Source: an uncultured virus (IMG/VR IMGVR_UViG_3300028840_007129)
Lineage: Duplodnaviria; Heunggongvirae; Uroviricota; Caudoviricetes
IMG/VR virus record: IMGVR_UViG_3300028840_007129
Reading direction: 5' to 3' (one strand)
DNA: 64,000 nt
Both the position numbers and the translations under genes were made by a program. Shown piece by piece: positions 3,847-63,639 of this stretch; position 1 is the stretch's first letter; every line of letters begins with the position of its first letter. Under the pieces are notes generated by a model. It made no database searches. It was not told where the DNA came from and saw only the letters and a program-made list of their open reading frames with translations.

Positions 3847-3875
3847 AATATAACACGGATTGGCTTGACTGTCAA
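3847..3875 (-). promoter_or_regulatory. Sigma70-type promoter
   Basis: Minus strand TTGACA-17 nt-TATATT. Confidence 0.75.
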
Positions 3876-4555
3876 TAGGTAGCAAGAACTTTTTTTCTCA
3901 AGGCAAACCAACGGTCAGAATATTTGTTCTGGAAAATTCTATCGTATTCACCGCTAATTATCCGCTTAATTTGAGGCATGTAGGAACGGTGGAGAGCCGT
4001 AACCCCATGTATTCTCAGGGCCATTAAGTGATCTGGCGATCGGTAACCCTTGTTCGAAGCTATATGGTATTGGGAATAATCATTACCATAATGTTTTACT
4101 ATAAATCCGTCCCTGTAATCCTTTGCTATTATAGAGGCTACAGAGATCCCGAATACTTTTTCATCACCCTTGATTATGGTATAAACGGGGCACGGATATT
4201 CTATAGGATGTATGCCATCAATGAAAAGAGCGTCTGGCCTTACAGGCAAGCCATCAACGGCTCTCTGCATAGCCAGCTTATCGGCGGTTACTAGATTTCT
4301 AATCTTGCATATTTCCTGAGCTTTGACTACCCCGTAGGAGTAGACTACCCTGTTTCTTAATTCCGGAGCCAGCCTATATATAATTTCGTGTTTGAGCTTT
4401 TTTGAATCGTCTACGAGTTTATTCTCGAAGGGGGCCGTGATAAGAACAGCGCATGCCACTAGCTCTCCAAAGATAGCTCCCATTCCTACTTCATCAATAA
4501 AGGCAGGTGAGTTGTATTGAGATGTGATATGCTCTATAAAGGGGTCTGATATCAT
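3872..4555 (-). CDS. rnhB: Ribonuclease HII
   Basis: Motifs IDEVG, DDSKKL, LFIDG, IIKGD, ASIIAKDYRD, NKGY and HRSY. Confidence 0.93.
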   Translation of the reverse strand: MISDPFIEHITSQYNSPAFIDEVGMGAIFGELVACAVLITAPFENKLVDDSKKLKHEIIYRLAPELRNRVVYSYGVVKAQEICKIRNLVTADKLAMQRAVDGLPVRPDALFIDGIHPIEYPCPVYTIIKGDEKVFGISVASIIAKDYRDGFIVKHYGNDYSQYHIASNKGYRSPDHLMALRIHGVTALHRSYMPQIKRIISGEYDRIFQNKYSDRWFALRKKVLATY

Positions 4556-5287: not shown

Positions 5288-5623
5288 TTAGTATCTGTTA
5301 CGGCTATAACCACCACCCCCACCATAGCCTCCTCCACCATAACCGCCGCCACCGTAACTACCGCCACCACTGCTGCGGGAAGGCCTTTCCTTGGCCTCGT
5401 TTACGGTGAGTTTCCGACCATTGAAGTCCTGGCCGTTGAACGCCTCGATGGCCTTATGGCTGTCGGATACCTCCACGAAGCCAAAACCACGAGACTTTCC
5501 GGTTTCACGATCGGTGATGATCGTGGCAGACTGTACGTCCACTACTGACGCGAAGTGACTCTTGAGATCCTCTTCCGTGACCGACCACGGAAGGTTACCG
5601 ACGTAGAGCTTTGCTGACACCAA
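5288..5623 (-). CDS. RRM (RNP-1) RNA-binding protein with a Gly/Tyr-rich tail
   Basis: RNP2 LYVGNL, RNP1 RGFGFVE, GRKLTVNEAK, and a GGGGY-repeat tail. Confidence 0.95.
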   Translation of the reverse strand: MVSAKLYVGNLPWSVTEEDLKSHFASVVDVQSATIITDRETGKSRGFGFVEVSDSHKAIEAFNGQDFNGRKLTVNEAKERPSRSSGGGSYGGGGYGGGGYGGGGGYSRNRY

Positions 5624-7217: not shown

Positions 7218-7477
7218 ACAGTCCTCGTGAACTTATCGAGCTCTTCGAAATAGGTTTCCAGAGCCCTGAGAGCCCCTGATTTTTTACGTTCTAAACTGAT
7301 AGACCCCGTCGCGTAGTCAATAATAATCACTCTAAAGGGTACTGCTCCTCAAGTTCCGGATCTGAGTGATCATGCGCTTCTTCAATGCCTTCTTGTAGCT
7401 CTTCGGCAGATAGAACATCATCATCAAACGGGTATCGTTCAAGTTCTTCCATTGGTTCCCATGCCTTTCAAAAATTT

Positions 7478-7672
7478 TTATTGCAGCCAACGTTTACCGC
7501 ACTCGCCCGAAGTATGATACATGCACCCCGACGCAACAGGGCATTCCGAACGACGGCTCGGCATTTTGGGCTGCGGCTGTTGGTTGATGTGGATCGCAGG
7601 TTCCGTCAGTTTTGCGCGGCCAGCTACGCTATCGTGATACTCCTGCGAATCCTCAAACGGCGAATATGACAT
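7478..7672 (-). CDS. Cassette A small ORF (MSYSPFEDSQ...GKRWLQ), reading through its attC-like hairpin
   Basis: ATG at 7672 just inside the unit start GTTGGTTG; the stop lies beyond the downstream GTT core. Confidence 0.55.
   Translation of the reverse strand: MSYSPFEDSQEYHDSVAGRAKLTEPAIHINQQPQPKMPSRRSECPVASGCMYHTSGECGKRWLQ
7484..7586 (-). repeat. attC-like site 1
   Basis: Minus strand CAACCAAC-AG-CCGCAGCCCAAAATG...CTTCGGGCGAGTGCGG-TAAAC-GTTGGCTG; imperfect hairpin. Confidence 0.75.
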
Positions 7673-7690
7673 TGACGGCCTCACTTTATT

Positions 7691-7761
7691 CAACCAACGT
7701 CCGATGCAAGCCGCAGTTTGTACTCAAATTGACGTAGTGAACGGCTTGCATTTGTTGGTTG
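7691..7761 (-). repeat. attC-like site 2
   Basis: Minus strand CAACCAAC-AA-ATGCAAGCCG-TTCACTACGT-CAATTTG-AGTA-CAAACTG-CGGCTTGCAT-CGGAC-GTTGGTTG; perfect 10-bp arm. Confidence 0.85.
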
Positions 7762-7798
7762 CTGTATGCGACCGCTCCACAGTTTTAGCGAACGGGTA

Positions 7799-7930
7799 CT
7801 ATCCCTGAAGCTCCGTAACCACACGACTGTAGAATACCGGGATGAACAACAGCCACACAATACGGTGACGGATAACCTCACACTTGCCATACTTGCCACG
7901 TTTGATTTCTAACCACTGCCTATATACCAT
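7799..7930 (-). CDS. Cassette B small ORF, 43 aa (MVYRQWLEIKRGKYGKCEVIRHRIVWLLFIPVFYSRVVTELQG)
   Basis: Hand-translated; GGAGGT SD; lies between attC-like sites 3 and 2. Confidence 0.65.
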   Translation of the reverse strand: MVYRQWLEIKRGKYGKCEVIRHRIVWLLFIPVFYSRVVTELQG

Positions 7931-7975
7931 GATAACCTCCAGTGAGCGATTTACAAAATGGTCGGTCGCATATTG

Positions 7976-8126
7976 CAACCAACGTTCTCAGCAATGGCGA
8001 AGTTACCCGGCACCCCCGCACGCCTCGCAACCACAACCATGCTCGTGCCCGTTGCTATTGTAAATACCCAACGCGATACGACGCCGGGTAATTTCCGTAG
8101 GCTCCGCGCCATTGCTGTGTTGTGGG
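7976..8126 (-). repeat. attC-like site 3
   Basis: Minus strand CCCACAAC-A-CAGCAATGGCG...AAATTACCCGGC...GCCGGGTAACTT-CGCCATTGCTG-AGAAC-GTTGGTTG. Confidence 0.85.
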
Positions 8127-8215
8127 GCGTGACGTGCCGACTCCTTATTTCTCCACGCGGCTAGAATCATAAGGTCTGTTGGATCGCCAATTATTTGAGA
8201 ATCATCAATTGACAT
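8003..8215 (-). CDS. Cassette C small ORF, C-terminal half encoded inside the attC-like hairpin
   Basis: GGGAGGT SD; 70 aa; ends within site 3. Confidence 0.6.
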   Translation of the reverse strand: MSIDDSQIIGDPTDLMILAAWRNKESARHAPQHSNGAEPTEITRRRIALGIYNSNGHEHGCGCEACGGAG

Positions 8216-8271
8216 TGAAACCTCCCAGTTGTTTTAAGCCGCGCCTACAATAAAGACTCGGCACGGCATGT

Positions 8272-8412
8272 ACCACAACGTCCTGCTAAATGGCTGATAG
8301 TTTTGCCACGGCTTGTTCCAAATATTCTGCCACATGATTAACATGACCCATCGAATTACGCTGAAGTGCCTTTTCAACAAGTGGCAAAATTTCAGCCTTT
8401 AGCTGTTGTGTG
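8272..8412 (-). repeat. attC-like site 4
   Basis: Minus strand CACACAAC-A-GCTAAAGGCTGAAATTTTGCCACTTG...CAAGCCGTGGCAAAACTATCAGCCATTTAGC-AGGAC-GTTGTGGT. Confidence 0.85.
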
Positions 8413-8531
8413 TCTGTAAAATTTGCCTCCATAAGTTCAATGGCGGCATTCCACACGTCAGCCAATGTGGGCTTTTTGGTACAGGTTTGCAAATAGTTAC
8501 TTAACGAACGCTCGTATCTTATTGCCGCCAT
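8286..8531 (-). CDS. Cassette D small ORF, 81 aa
   Basis: GGAGGT SD; the C-terminal QQLKAEILPLVE...AVAKLSAI is encoded by site 4. Confidence 0.7.
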   Translation of the reverse strand: MAAIRYERSLSNYLQTCTKKPTLADVWNAAIELMEANFTDTQQLKAEILPLVEKALQRNSMGHVNHVAEYLEQAVAKLSAI

Positions 8532-8559
8532 TTATAACCTCCAAAAGCAAATTTTATTG

Positions 8560-8624
8560 CACACAACTTCATCAATAGCGCAATAAAGTTCGTCATTTGA
8601 AACTAACGCTGATACTGTTGAAAT
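8560..8624 (-). repeat. Degenerate attC-like site 5 or insertion boundary
   Basis: Minus strand ATTTCAAC...GAAGTTGTGTG with weak internal pairing; supplies the GTT start of cassette D. Confidence 0.4.
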
Positions 8625-63304: not shown

Positions 63305-63639
63305 CACCCTATAGTTGACTGCAAGGTGTCACATATTCACACCTTGCAATGCCGCCTCGTTGACGGGCACCCTATAGTTGATTGCAAGGTGTCACATATT
63401 CACACCTTGCAGTCAATGCCGCCTCGTTGACGGGCACCCTATAGTTGATTGCAAGGTGTCACATATTCACACCTTGCAATCAATGGTGCCGTCCCGTTGA
63501 CGGGCACCCTATAGTTGATTGCAAGGTGTCACATATTCACACCTTGCAATCAATGGGTGTCACATATTCACACCTTGCAATCAATGGTGCCGTCCCGTTG
63601 ACGGGCACCCTATAGTTGATTGCAAGGTGTCACATATTC
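63305..63639. repeat. Tandem array of 63-70 bp double-hairpin units
   Basis: CACCCTATAGTTGA(T/C)TGCAAGGTGTCACATATTC starts at 63305, 63368, 63435, 63505 and 63606, plus a partial copy near 63556. Confidence 0.95.

Follow-up and report, generated by a model that had tools for sequence, protein, structure and literature searches.

An extra covarying helix between the ends of integron-like gene cassettes in phage arrays

The gene cassettes of a short array in the DNA of an uncultured virus belong to a family most of whose members pair their own two ends over a fixed 22 bp: a core of 8-9 bp is followed by a conserved 2-nt mismatch and then by a helix of 10-11 bp of free sequence. This second arm is genuine and under selection, and it makes these sites a variant of the integron type. 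The family consists of integron-like cassettes whose hosts are mainly large phages. We favour, with a probability of roughly 0.6, the reading that this is an integron-like phage cassette array in which the helix joining the two ends of one cassette (the X helix) belongs to the site at which the free cassette recombines, served by an Xer-like enzyme in trans.

The window, the whole 64,000-nucleotide stretch analysed here, is 64 kb of a 186-kb contig and is probably of phage origin, judging from PHROG hits and IMG/VR relatives. Between positions 7290 and 8622 it holds a short array of five small gene cassettes with minus-strand genes, without a recombinase in the window; all genes of the region lie on this one strand. 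The cassettes are separated by attC-like hairpins, and cassettes of this family also make up arrays in large IMG/VR phage contigs. In gene order, the features are the following (units are numbered as in the initial annotation; ^ marks a cassette boundary here and below):

8560-8622, minus strand: weak candidate hairpin bordering the array upstream (by eye)
8405-8567, minus strand: body of cassette D, first in the array (unit 4); DNA fold z about -5 to -6
8546-8567 (or 8547-8567) with 8405-8426: own-end helix of cassette D, head and tail; 8-bp core, 4x3 bubble, perfect 10-bp arm
8286-8531, minus strand: cassette D ORF, 81 aa, GGAGG Shine-Dalgarno
8272-8412, minus strand: D/C attC-like hairpin, core CACACAAC ... 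GTTGTGG; z -4.9/-5.2
8119-8279, minus strand: body of cassette C (unit 2); arms 8249-8279 (head) and 8119-8149 (tail)
8003-8215, minus strand: cassette C ORF, 70 aa, GGGAGG Shine-Dalgarno; weak coding signal; continues through the next hairpin
7976-8126, minus strand: C/B attC-like hairpin; z -3.3/-4.0
7754-7983, minus strand: body of cassette B (unit 1); arms 7963-7983 (head) and 7754-7774 (tail)
7799-7930, minus strand: cassette B ORF, 43 aa, GGAGG Shine-Dalgarno
7691-7761, minus strand: short B/A attC-like hairpin; z about -6
7579-7698, minus strand: body of cassette A (unit 3); 9-bp core pairs only, without a second arm
7483-7586, minus strand: A/E attC-like hairpin; weak fold, z -0.3/-1.0
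7290-7491, minus strand: cassette E, the last; typical head GTTGGCTG-CAAT-AAAAATTTTTG, without a matching tail or core (by eye)
7327-7452, minus strand: cassette E ORF, 41 aa, acidic

All four junctions in the window read ...AC^GTTG..., as they do in related loci. By eye, the upstream border instead reads GAA^GTTGTGTG, and the array ends near 7290 at ...TTTAGAAC^GTAAAAAA. The hairpins of 71, 141 and 151 nt fold with z-scores of -3.3 to -6.1, the 104-nt hairpin of the window is weak, and hairpins elsewhere in the family are of similar size. The ORF of cassette D runs across the tail arm, the core and the entire attC-like hairpin, with its stop codon in the 3' arm of that hairpin; its homologue P0002 is 41% identical, and the residues encoded by the hairpin arms are the best conserved. 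The D/C type of hairpin encodes the protein tail ...QQLKAEI...LSA(I/V), followed by the stop. Such reading through the whole hairpin is common in the family, unlike in integrons.

The four pairs of terminal sequences quoted in the initial annotation lie where it placed them, and its description of extended terminal inverted repeats of 20-30 bp holds for cassettes B, C and D (21-31 nt on GTTG/CAAC cores). It fails for cassette A, where the 9-bp core pair GTTGGTTGA/TCAACCAAC stands alone: the CCGTCA/TGACGG 6-mers miss each other's register by 5 nt, and beyond the core no in-register run exceeds 3 nt. According to a repeat finder, the arms of cassette B are 21 nt long and 90% complementary, and those of cassette C 31 nt and 81%; these two terminal repeats are among the longest inverted repeats within 300 nt across the 64-kb window, apart from a tandem palindrome at 63.3 kb. 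Cassette B shows the layout GTTGGTTG-C-AA-T followed by 9-10 nt, and the ends of cassette D, as read from the sequence, are laid out like those of the TCTG-type rows of the family. Rfam gave no match over the whole window at the gathering threshold, and the strict GTTRRRY/RYYYAAC consensus fails to pick out the window's cores. No similar DNA was found in the phage record collection searched, no exact copy of a 21-nt arm in IMG/VR, and no syntenic relatives of the proteins flanking the array in IMG/VR.

What the second arm looks like across the family emerges from 49 non-redundant cassettes, taken from 100 candidate consecutive pairs with an own-core match of at least 7/8 as the sole criterion; the loci were found via one hairpin-type pattern, so that the sample is biased to arrays holding that hairpin. 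Read in gene orientation, a cassette has its core, G^TTGNNNN, followed by a single paired C or A, then by the conserved AA, and then by T plus about 10 variable bases, the X arm. Downstream come the Shine-Dalgarno sequence and the gene, often a GGAG, then the complementary X' arm, A-CA-(G/T), and, at the 3' end, the NNNNCAAC core and an attC-like hairpin finishing ...AC^G. Scored as present at 9/10 matches or more, the second arm occurs in 36 of the 49 cassettes, against 16 of 2352 wrong-partner pairings. Positions 1-9 are paired with frequencies of 0.69-1.0, position 10 with 0.18 and position 11 with 0.02; the frequencies are 0.63-0.92 for positions 12-22 and at background from position 23. 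Exact second-arm runs start at position 12 and measure 8-11 nt, never more than 11. The layout of core, short mismatched bubble and second paired arm noticed in the initial annotation is thus correct, and more regular than it had claimed. The mismatch is 2x2, AA opposite CA; in the reverse-complement comparison it is AA opposite TG in 23 of 36.

The arm is conserved as a pairing and not as a sequence, with a head entropy of 1.6-2.0 bits at positions 13-22. Among 43 aligned cassettes, in all of which AAC/GTT is invariant, every one of the 11 arm pairs changes on both sides. The covariation score is 0.536, compared with 0.129 in shuffles, none of 500 of which reached 0.536, and it falls to 0.07-0.12 when the partners are slid by 1-3 columns; covariation of the outer arms, which the initial annotation had named as a check, is present. 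Homologous cassettes likewise differ in arm sequence while keeping complementarity, both in the set formed by window cassette D, L005 c1 and L042 and in the pair of window cassette B and L009. Locus L004 matches the window exactly throughout the array but for a single 37-nt insertion in the loop of the A/E hairpin, so that it gave no covariation. The arm is not indispensable, since 13 of the 49 cassettes, window cassette A included, lack it and still sit within arrays.

How far do ordinary integron cassettes pair their own ends? Pairing of 9-11 nt is described in the consulted part of Bouvier et al. (2009, PMC2727003). In our control set of 76 cassettes from 13 arrays adjoining bona fide IntI genes, the median was 9 contiguous nt (9-11 across measurements), and own-core matching also occurred in ordinary control arrays, in 77 of 87 pairs. 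The second arm was found in none of the 76, with a mean of 5.00/10 matches for own partners and 5.15 for wrong partners, nor in any of a first, smaller set of 29. The suggestion that pairing past the core is unusual therefore holds for the second arm, which is not equally common in ordinary cassettes, and not for the first bases past a 7-nt core, where 9-11 nt are both published and measured. Own ends in the family pair about twice as far (22 bases) as in ordinary integron cassettes.

A classical attC site has an R box, an unpaired central spacer, an L box, extrahelical bases and a variable loop, depends on IntI, and forms a hairpin of 57-141 nt between its cores. The family resembles it in its G^TT boundaries, its conserved AAC...GTT triplets, the C before GTT and the imperfect hairpins of about 56-150 nt between cassettes. 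As in integrons, a cassette's opening bases correspond to the inverse core at its own site and not to the one upstream, a signature of a circular intermediate, and the strand opposite the genes folds better. Unlike attC, the family has the additional covarying helix of 10-11 bp past the AA/CA mismatch (22 bp in total), very asymmetric spacers beside the core (by eye, 1-2 nt against about 5) and a different placement of bulges. Its hairpins are also missed by a classical model. Because self-similarity yielded only one clean ordinary array (L038) and generic hairpin scans were too noisy, we built a covariance model (R1) from 25 classical sites; it is home-made, covers one bacterial class and is not the model of IntegronFinder. 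It gave 120 matches at E≤1 in 18 ordinary arrays, with 17-81 bits, and none at E≤10 in the window and 17 family loci (175 kb). With filters off, the highest-scoring matches reached 13.9 bits, on the minus strand in the window's B/A hairpin (7692-7760), and 11.8 bits, in L042. This failure does not prove that IntI cannot use the family's sites. Two genome-contig matches to the hairpin-arm pattern, lacking cassette architecture, were set aside as chance, one of the two genomes serving as a doorway to ordinary integrons, and metagenome locus L010 was dropped because it looks like an unrelated protein match.

The structure has consequences for how a free cassette would fold. Within an array, a hairpin is followed by the core of the next cassette, which rules out an X helix at that site. 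For the 49 cassettes, we compared the junction hairpin after circularisation in silico at G^TT with the same site in its array context. The circle hairpin was more stable by a mean of -6.8 kcal/mol on the gene-sense strand and -8.7 on the other strand, in 41 of 49 and 45 of 49 cassettes, respectively; core, second arm and attC-like arms stack into one hairpin, in agreement with the earlier expectation that the excised circle would carry a longer hairpin. Of the two strands, the one opposite the genes has the more stable fold in 42 of 49 cassettes, and core mismatches that turn into G.T number 17 on the non-coding strand compared with 5 on the sense strand. The X arm itself gives no strand preference, with G.T-type counts of 4 (non-coding) and 3 (sense). 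A proposal based on bulge positions, that the genes lie on the equivalent of the classical bottom strand, was withdrawn as unsettled; the flanking motifs (AAC-A..., ...AC-GTT) and the weak attC-model matches point to the usual arrangement, in which the genes are on the top strand.

Which enzyme could act on such sites? Neither IntI nor any other recombinase is found in the 64-kb window. In locus L044, a tyrosine recombinase of 268 aa ends 6 nt before the first cassette head; it scores 125.5 bits against TIGR02249, whose cut-off is 265, and is about 50 aa shorter than IntI, across the region of the IntI insertion. In locus L058, a homologue with 54% identity is immediately followed by a cassette head. 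By their sequences, both classify as Xer-like enzymes without the integron-integrase insertion; the link between arrays and such an enzyme rests on these two loci. The L044 and L058 arrays lie in phage or provirus contigs of roughly 45 kb. Searches of IMG/VR with the recombinase by itself and with a 20-homologue alignment turned up just two close relatives, the other 78 loci kept being generic Xer-like proteins with less than 35% identity. TIGR02249 matched in none of 5 viral records, and PF00589 in one of 10 viral records with such arrays; the other nine, three of them estimated to be 98-100% complete, have no tyrosine recombinase. The absence of the second arm from all 76 ordinary cassettes, the blindness of the classical attC model and the Xer-like nature of the adjacent recombinase together bear out the idea of a distinct class of site.

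Signs of mobility come from assembled contigs only, and no reads of a circular junction were found. In contigs from two other studies, cassette B or the 7691-7758 hairpin is present and gives way to unlike sequence at 7984, 7757 and 7691-7695; the contigs with cassette B diverge from the window at the cores. Cassettes thus occur in other contexts, with breakpoints at cores. One contig shows a joint from 8147 to 8254, with 28 nt on its shorter side, and one a backward joint from 8281 to 7744 with 29 other letters; these may represent relatives or assembly across an inverted repeat, and we draw nothing from them or from uncovered stretches. Among 39 cassette proteins, Pfam gave one zinc-ribbon match just under the cut-off and one weak Lar-like and one weak methylase-like match, both below it.

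In the mechanism that we propose, the X helix would form only between the two ends of the same cassette. Once a cassette is free as a single-stranded circle, its X helix would stack with its core (R box) and its hairpin arms (L box) as one three-box stem. There the X helix would make the fold more stable and help to present the core, and the strand involved is probably the one complementary to the genes. To an Xer-like recombinase lacking the IntI insertion it may offer an extra binding surface or a means of recognising a cassette's own ends, and such an enzyme would act in trans on recombinase-less arrays like that of the window. That recombination happens at all, the strand it would use and the role of the X helix are what we infer from these structures. 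A more far-reaching version, possible but tentative, would make this a separate, integron-like gene-exchange system common to phages of this group. A small Xer-like enzyme without the IntI insertion, its gene heading the arrays of temperate phages of about 45 kb, would recombine folded sites of three boxes (X box, core, L box), the X box replacing the reading of extrahelical bases, marking the free cassette and selecting the strand; cassettes would be loaded in trans into co-infecting jumbo phages, and the system would stand between Xer/dif recombination and integrons, either as an intermediate still living or as a parallel invention.

Several other explanations have to be weighed against the reading of the X helix as part of a free cassette's site. 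The helix might act within the array, the single-stranded cassette body folding on itself through X and its own core and thereby sequestering cores, damping excision or forming a mirror-image second site that shares the core. We consider this rather unlikely, since closing loops of 100-800 nt is entropically costly; yet cores flanking a hairpin often match at 4-6 of 8 positions, while own cores match at 7-8 with 11 bp added by X, and in the window both sets of stems fold with strongly negative z-scores. Such a role does not exclude the circle model, and the results presented here fit either. The interleaved second set of stems considered in the initial annotation may form in the array too. A role in the mRNA is unlikely: X in the 5' leader would pair with X' about 100-250 nt downstream, looping the ribosome-binding site and start codon, and would control translation or transcript stability. 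The arrangement suits this, as X lies between core and Shine-Dalgarno sequence in the 5' untranslated leader, X' lies usually inside or just after the ORF on the gene strand, and all genes of the region are on that strand. However, the helix continues the DNA recombination core and stops at a fixed position, 22, the sense strand shows no preference for G.U-type mismatches (5 in the core and 3 in the arm, against 17 and 4 on the other strand), the more stable fold belongs to the strand opposite the mRNA in 42 of 49 cassettes, and, by eye, two cassettes without an evident ORF (L005 869-1145 and the L009 homologue) retain the arm.

It is quite improbable that these are ordinary integron cassettes in a phage, a CALIN whose repeats are the usual own-end core complementarity and nothing special, even though classical cassettes share the AAC...GTT cores, the intervening hairpins, the own-core matching and the C ahead of GTT and, as far as the consulted parts of the papers go, both phage CALINs (Qi et al. 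2023, PMC9892861) and own-end pairing of 9-11 nt (PMC2727003) are published. An arm at positions 12-22 in 36 of 49 family cassettes against none of 76 ordinary ones weighs against it, as do the attC model, which found nothing at E≤10 in the family (best 13.9 bits, against 17-81 for the 120 ordinary matches), and the absence of IntI from every record searched. Very improbable, finally, is a passive footprint of cassette origin, by hairpin-primed synthesis or from the ends of a transposon-like ancestor, with no present function. Perfect arms of 10-11 bp could stem from templated copying, and otherwise this is a general idea only; homologous cassettes with different yet complementary arms speak against it, as does the 2-nt mismatch conserved inside the helix in 23 of 36, because copying of one arm would have erased that mismatch. 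The initial annotation also suggested that the arms might reveal how cassettes come into being; we found nothing in support of this, and the same mismatch argues against simple templated copying.

How does the family relate to mobile gene modules already described? Like phage CALINs, the window has a row of cassettes without a recombinase in a phage-like genome (four to five hairpins, where a CALIN is defined by at least two attC sites without a nearby integrase) and small unknown genes as cargo, and related arrays hold the weak, below-cut-off methylase-like and Lar-like (restriction alleviation) matches, similar to the cargo in the consulted part of Qi et al. (PMC9892861). The phage CALIN sites of that paper are called by attC predictors and recombined by IntI1, whereas the family's sites are missed by our home-made attC model; the part consulted makes no mention of a second own-end arm. 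The pdif modules of Acinetobacter plasmids, small gene modules bounded by alternating inverted sites, are probably moved by an Xer-type tyrosine recombinase and not by IntI. The family shares with them small gene modules bounded by recombination sites and, putatively, an Xer-type enzyme. A pdif site, however, is a local double-stranded 28 bp with 11-6-11 arms, unlike the family's pairing partners, which lie 50-800 nt apart and form folded hairpins; by eye, no local dif-like palindrome is seen at the junctions. In literature mostly outside subscription journals, whose main texts included PMC3053210, PMC5027507, PMC2727003 and PMC8138268, we found neither a second own-end helix nor Xer-linked phage cassette arrays described.

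Besides the R box, the L box and the three unpaired features known from integron cassette sites, the family has a third, covarying helix, which widens the range of possible cassette recombination sites. The helix also provides a simple signature for phage metagenomes, where attC models miss the sites: GTTGNNNN-(C/A)AAT-N10 ... N10'-ACAG-NNNNCAAC. Since only the two ends of one and the same cassette can form the helix, it becomes directly testable whether folding marks a free as opposed to an arrayed cassette. The link to an Xer-like recombinase bears on the evolution of integron integrases from Xer enzymes, the subject of the consulted part of Escudero et al. (2016, PMC4792948), and on how small accessory genes are traded among large phages.

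From position 7480 to 8620 of the window, segments are chained through 8-bp cores that read, on the plus strand, GTTGGTTG or GTTGTGKG and CAACCAAC or CACACAAC. Segments of the form AAC...GTT are imperfect hairpins, and those of the form GTT...AAC, units A to D, bear terminal inverted repeats.

Features of the cassette array (hairpins from DNA folding; repeats of units B and C from a repeat finder)
7483-7586, imperfect hairpin
7579-7698, unit A, ends with a 9-bp core alone, 6-mers out of register
7691-7761, imperfect hairpin
7754-7983, unit B, inverted repeat of 21 nt, 90% complementarity
7976-8126, imperfect hairpin
8119-8279, unit C, inverted repeat of 31 nt, 81% complementarity
8272-8412, imperfect hairpin
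8405-8567, unit D, ends with an 8-bp core, a 4x3 bubble and a perfect 10-bp arm
8531>8286, minus strand, small ORF with GGAGG-type ribosome-binding site
8215>8003, minus strand, small ORF with GGAGG-type ribosome-binding site
7930>7799, minus strand, small ORF with GGAGG-type ribosome-binding site
7672>7478, minus strand, small ORF with GGAGG-type ribosome-binding site

The four complementary sequence pairs quoted in the initial annotation are all present where it had placed them. Its claim that each cassette carries extended terminal repeats beyond the core held for units B, C and D and failed for unit A, which has only the 9-bp core and 6-mers out of register. The z-scores of DNA folds, computed against mononucleotide shuffles, ran from -2.2 to -5.8 in units A-D and from -3.3 to -6.1 in all but one of the four hairpins. 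Setting aside a tandem palindrome near 63.3 kb, the repeats of B and C belong to the longest inverted ones within 300 nt anywhere in the 64-kb window. The small ORFs have a codon score that is higher in frame than off frame, yet lower than that of the window's long genes, and all but one of the four continue through the hairpin that follows. By eye, the last cassette, E (7290-7491), has a typical head and no tail or inverse core; the array end on its side reads ...CTATCAGTTTAGAAC|GTAAAAAA, which would fit recombination of the last site with a non-canonical GTA target. A 37-nt insertion near 7513, in the loop of the 7483-7586 hairpin, is present in a 99%-identical contig (L004) and one public run, and is the sole difference across the array between the window and that contig.

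For the 81-aa protein that unit D encodes there is one homologue, 41% identical, and the best-conserved residues between the two are precisely those that the hairpin arms encode. A metagenome scan seeded by both proteins returned the 99%-identical contig and several loci with the same array architecture, and the hairpin-arm DNA pattern located 14 loci on 12 IMG/VR contigs, which range from 8 to 467 kb and include two with direct terminal repeats. The IMG/VR loci hold long arrays; one, L042, has a dozen cassettes. One hairpin type (window 8272-8412; related loci L005, L006, L007, L009 and L041-L054), translated in frame, ends many unrelated small proteins with a common tail, ...QQLKAEIA...(~25 aa)...RQLSAV*, whose stop codon lies within the 3' arm; the peptide may matter itself or be a by-product of the DNA palindrome. 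By eye, L005 also has a single ORF (2560-2925) with two consecutive hairpin-type modules (HQLKAEIA...KLQQLS..., then ...VKAEIT...LRKLSV*), an arrangement suggestive of two sites fused into a single gene. Homologous cassettes at L005 869-1145 and L009 ~549-739 keep the own-end arm with no evident ORF (by eye), and in L009 the inverse core is degenerate (CACACAGC) and hardly anything is left of the hairpin.

Across this family, sites were defined by hairpin energy and an AC|GTT junction, and each cassette head was paired with the best-matching inverse core ahead of the next site. This gave 100 candidate cassettes, from which we kept 49 non-redundant ones with an own-core match of at least 7/8, a criterion in which the second arm plays no part; the 51 left out are mostly false site calls or skipped sites. 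A second arm (at least 9/10 matches) joins the two ends in 36 of the 49, against 16 of 2352 wrong-partner pairings, some of which are between homologous cassettes from different loci. Its exact run begins at position 12 and extends over 8-11 nt, 11 being the maximum. The constant layout described initially, with a core, a short mismatched bubble and a second paired arm, was recovered in the pairing frequencies: positions 1-9 pair (frequency 0.69-1.0), 10-11 do not (0.18 and 0.02) and 12-22 pair again (0.63-0.92), with background levels further out. The head consists of GTTGNNNN, one paired base (C or A), AA, T and about 10 free bases, and the tail is its complement save for CA opposite the AA. 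In 23 of 36 cassettes, positions 10-11 show AA in the head versus TG in the reverse-complemented tail (CA on the tail strand).

The arm sequences themselves vary, with an entropy of 1.6-2.0 bits at positions 13-22. In an alignment of 43 cassettes (the 42 of 49 with bodies of at most 330 nt, plus window unit D), 80.6% of the cells in the arm helix are paired and both sides change at all 11 arm pairs. The covariation score of 0.536 is attained by 0 of 500 shuffles and compares with 0.129 in shuffled data, and sliding the partners by 1-3 columns lowers it to 0.07-0.12. Arms differ between homologous cassettes yet stay complementary, as in window D versus L005 and L042, and window B versus L009.

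Could this pairing be a general property of integron cassettes? A chance match pointed to a genome that encodes a genuine integron integrase, and a class-wide search found the integrase family in 77 of 201 genomes; 20 regions beside integrase genes were fetched, two unpublished genomes among the 77 being left out. A covariance model built on 25 classical sites from nine arrays recovered 120 sites in 18 arrays (E<=1); every one lies on the expected strand, and many were not part of the seed. The best 103 of the 120 matches gave 87 consecutive pairs, 77 of them with an own-core match of at least 7/8, and finally 76 non-redundant ordinary cassettes from 13 arrays. Their median contiguous own-end match is 9 nt, which accords with the 9-11 consecutive nt published for self-pairing (Bouvier et al. 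2009, PMC2727003), and pairing is at background from position 12. A second arm occurs in 0 of these 76 (own-partner mean 5.00 versus 5.15 for wrong partners) and in 0 of 29 in an earlier, hairpin-defined ordinary set. One clean ordinary array (L038) has own-end matches of 8-12 contiguous nt and nothing further, and passages of Nivina et al. 2016 (PMC5027507) give as parts of the site the R box and the L box along with three unpaired features, and no others.

The family hairpins resemble classical attC sites, the folded recombination sites of integron cassettes, in their AAC/GTT triplets, the C preceding GTT and own-core matching, but differ in core-flanking spacers of 1-2 nt against ~5 and in the positions of their bulges. 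The classical attC model had no match at E<=10 in the window and 17 family loci (175 kb); with filters off, its top matches reached 13.9 bits (window 7692-7760, minus strand) and 11.8 bits, against 17-81 bits for ordinary sites.

The initial annotation had proposed that the excised circle would carry a longer hairpin. When each site was joined in silico to its own head, the circle junction hairpin surpassed in stability the one formed with the neighbour's head in 41 of 49 cassettes for the gene-sense strand (mean difference -6.8 kcal/mol) and in 45 of 49 for the opposite strand (mean difference -8.7 kcal/mol). For circularised B and C, one continuous stem is predicted, comprising arm, bubble, core, spacer and hairpin arms. 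The non-gene-sense strand is the more stable in 42 of 49, and core mismatches become G.T in 17 cases on the non-coding strand versus 5 on the sense strand, in rows that are not independent.

No integrase was found within the 64-kb window, Pfam and PHROG searches included. Its genes lie nearly all on one strand and are in the majority unknown, with PHROG matches to an HNH endonuclease, ATPases and a deoxyribonucleotidase and Pfam matches to FtsK, RNase HII and a sigma factor; its encoded proteins are recorded on a 186-kb contig, and the window resembles a section of a large phage or comparable element. A few kb from the array, genes at 5288-5623 and 3872-4555 encode an RRM-type RNA-binding protein (PF00076, E 2e-19), of a kind unusual in phage-like elements, and an RNase HII, respectively. 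At 63315-63553, a 39-nt near-perfect palindrome (TTGATTGCAAGGTGTCACATATTCACACCTTGCAATCAA) stands in four tandem copies spaced ~67-70 nt apart, which look like putative operator or origin-type binding sites.

Among related viral records, the integron-integrase model TIGR02249 matched 0 of 5 and PF00589 matched 1 of 10, three of the negatives being estimated 98-100% complete. The sole match comes from L044, a 47.6-kb record classed as a provirus, and has 268 aa. XerA-type models fit this protein best (130 bits, under cut-off), the integron-integrase model gives 125.5 bits (cut-off 265), and its alignment with true IntI runs in two blocks, ~50 residues short at the IntI insertion. Among solved structures, an archaeal XerC-like/XerA-type recombinase (4a8e) comes nearest to it, with VchIntIA next. 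The L044 recombinase gene stops 6 nt ahead of the first of eight cassettes, which share its orientation, and the only close IMG/VR relative of the protein (L058, 54% identity) has a cassette head directly after the gene, near the contig end. By eye, the flank before the first cassette in both reads (C/G)(G/A)TATAATAA-N3, possibly an attI-like site overlapping the recombinase gene end. The first cassette meets its upstream flank at ...A|GTTG, the usual AC missing (by eye), in L044 (2770-2790), L058 (5830-5845), the window (8567-8580) and L042 (3790-3800). Upstream of the L044 recombinase (54-1732) are a DUF2800/PD-(D/E)XK nuclease and an Enc34-type single-strand DNA-binding protein, a neighbour that may be noteworthy because the site must fold as a single strand.

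In two runs of other studies, contigs contain either cassette B (199 nt, 4 differences; pieces 7739-7822 and 7851-7984) or the hairpin at 7691-7758; their likeness to the window breaks off at 7984, 7757 and 7691-7695, all of them core positions, and gives way to other sequence. Since these contigs are short, assembled and placed at 85% likeness, such breakpoints are a hint of cassette mobility rather than proof. The second arm is a genuine feature under selection, peculiar to this phage-borne cassette family. We infer its function, the strand used and the enzyme; on the best reading, the arm is a stem extension of the folded recombination site, formed only when a cassette's own ends meet.
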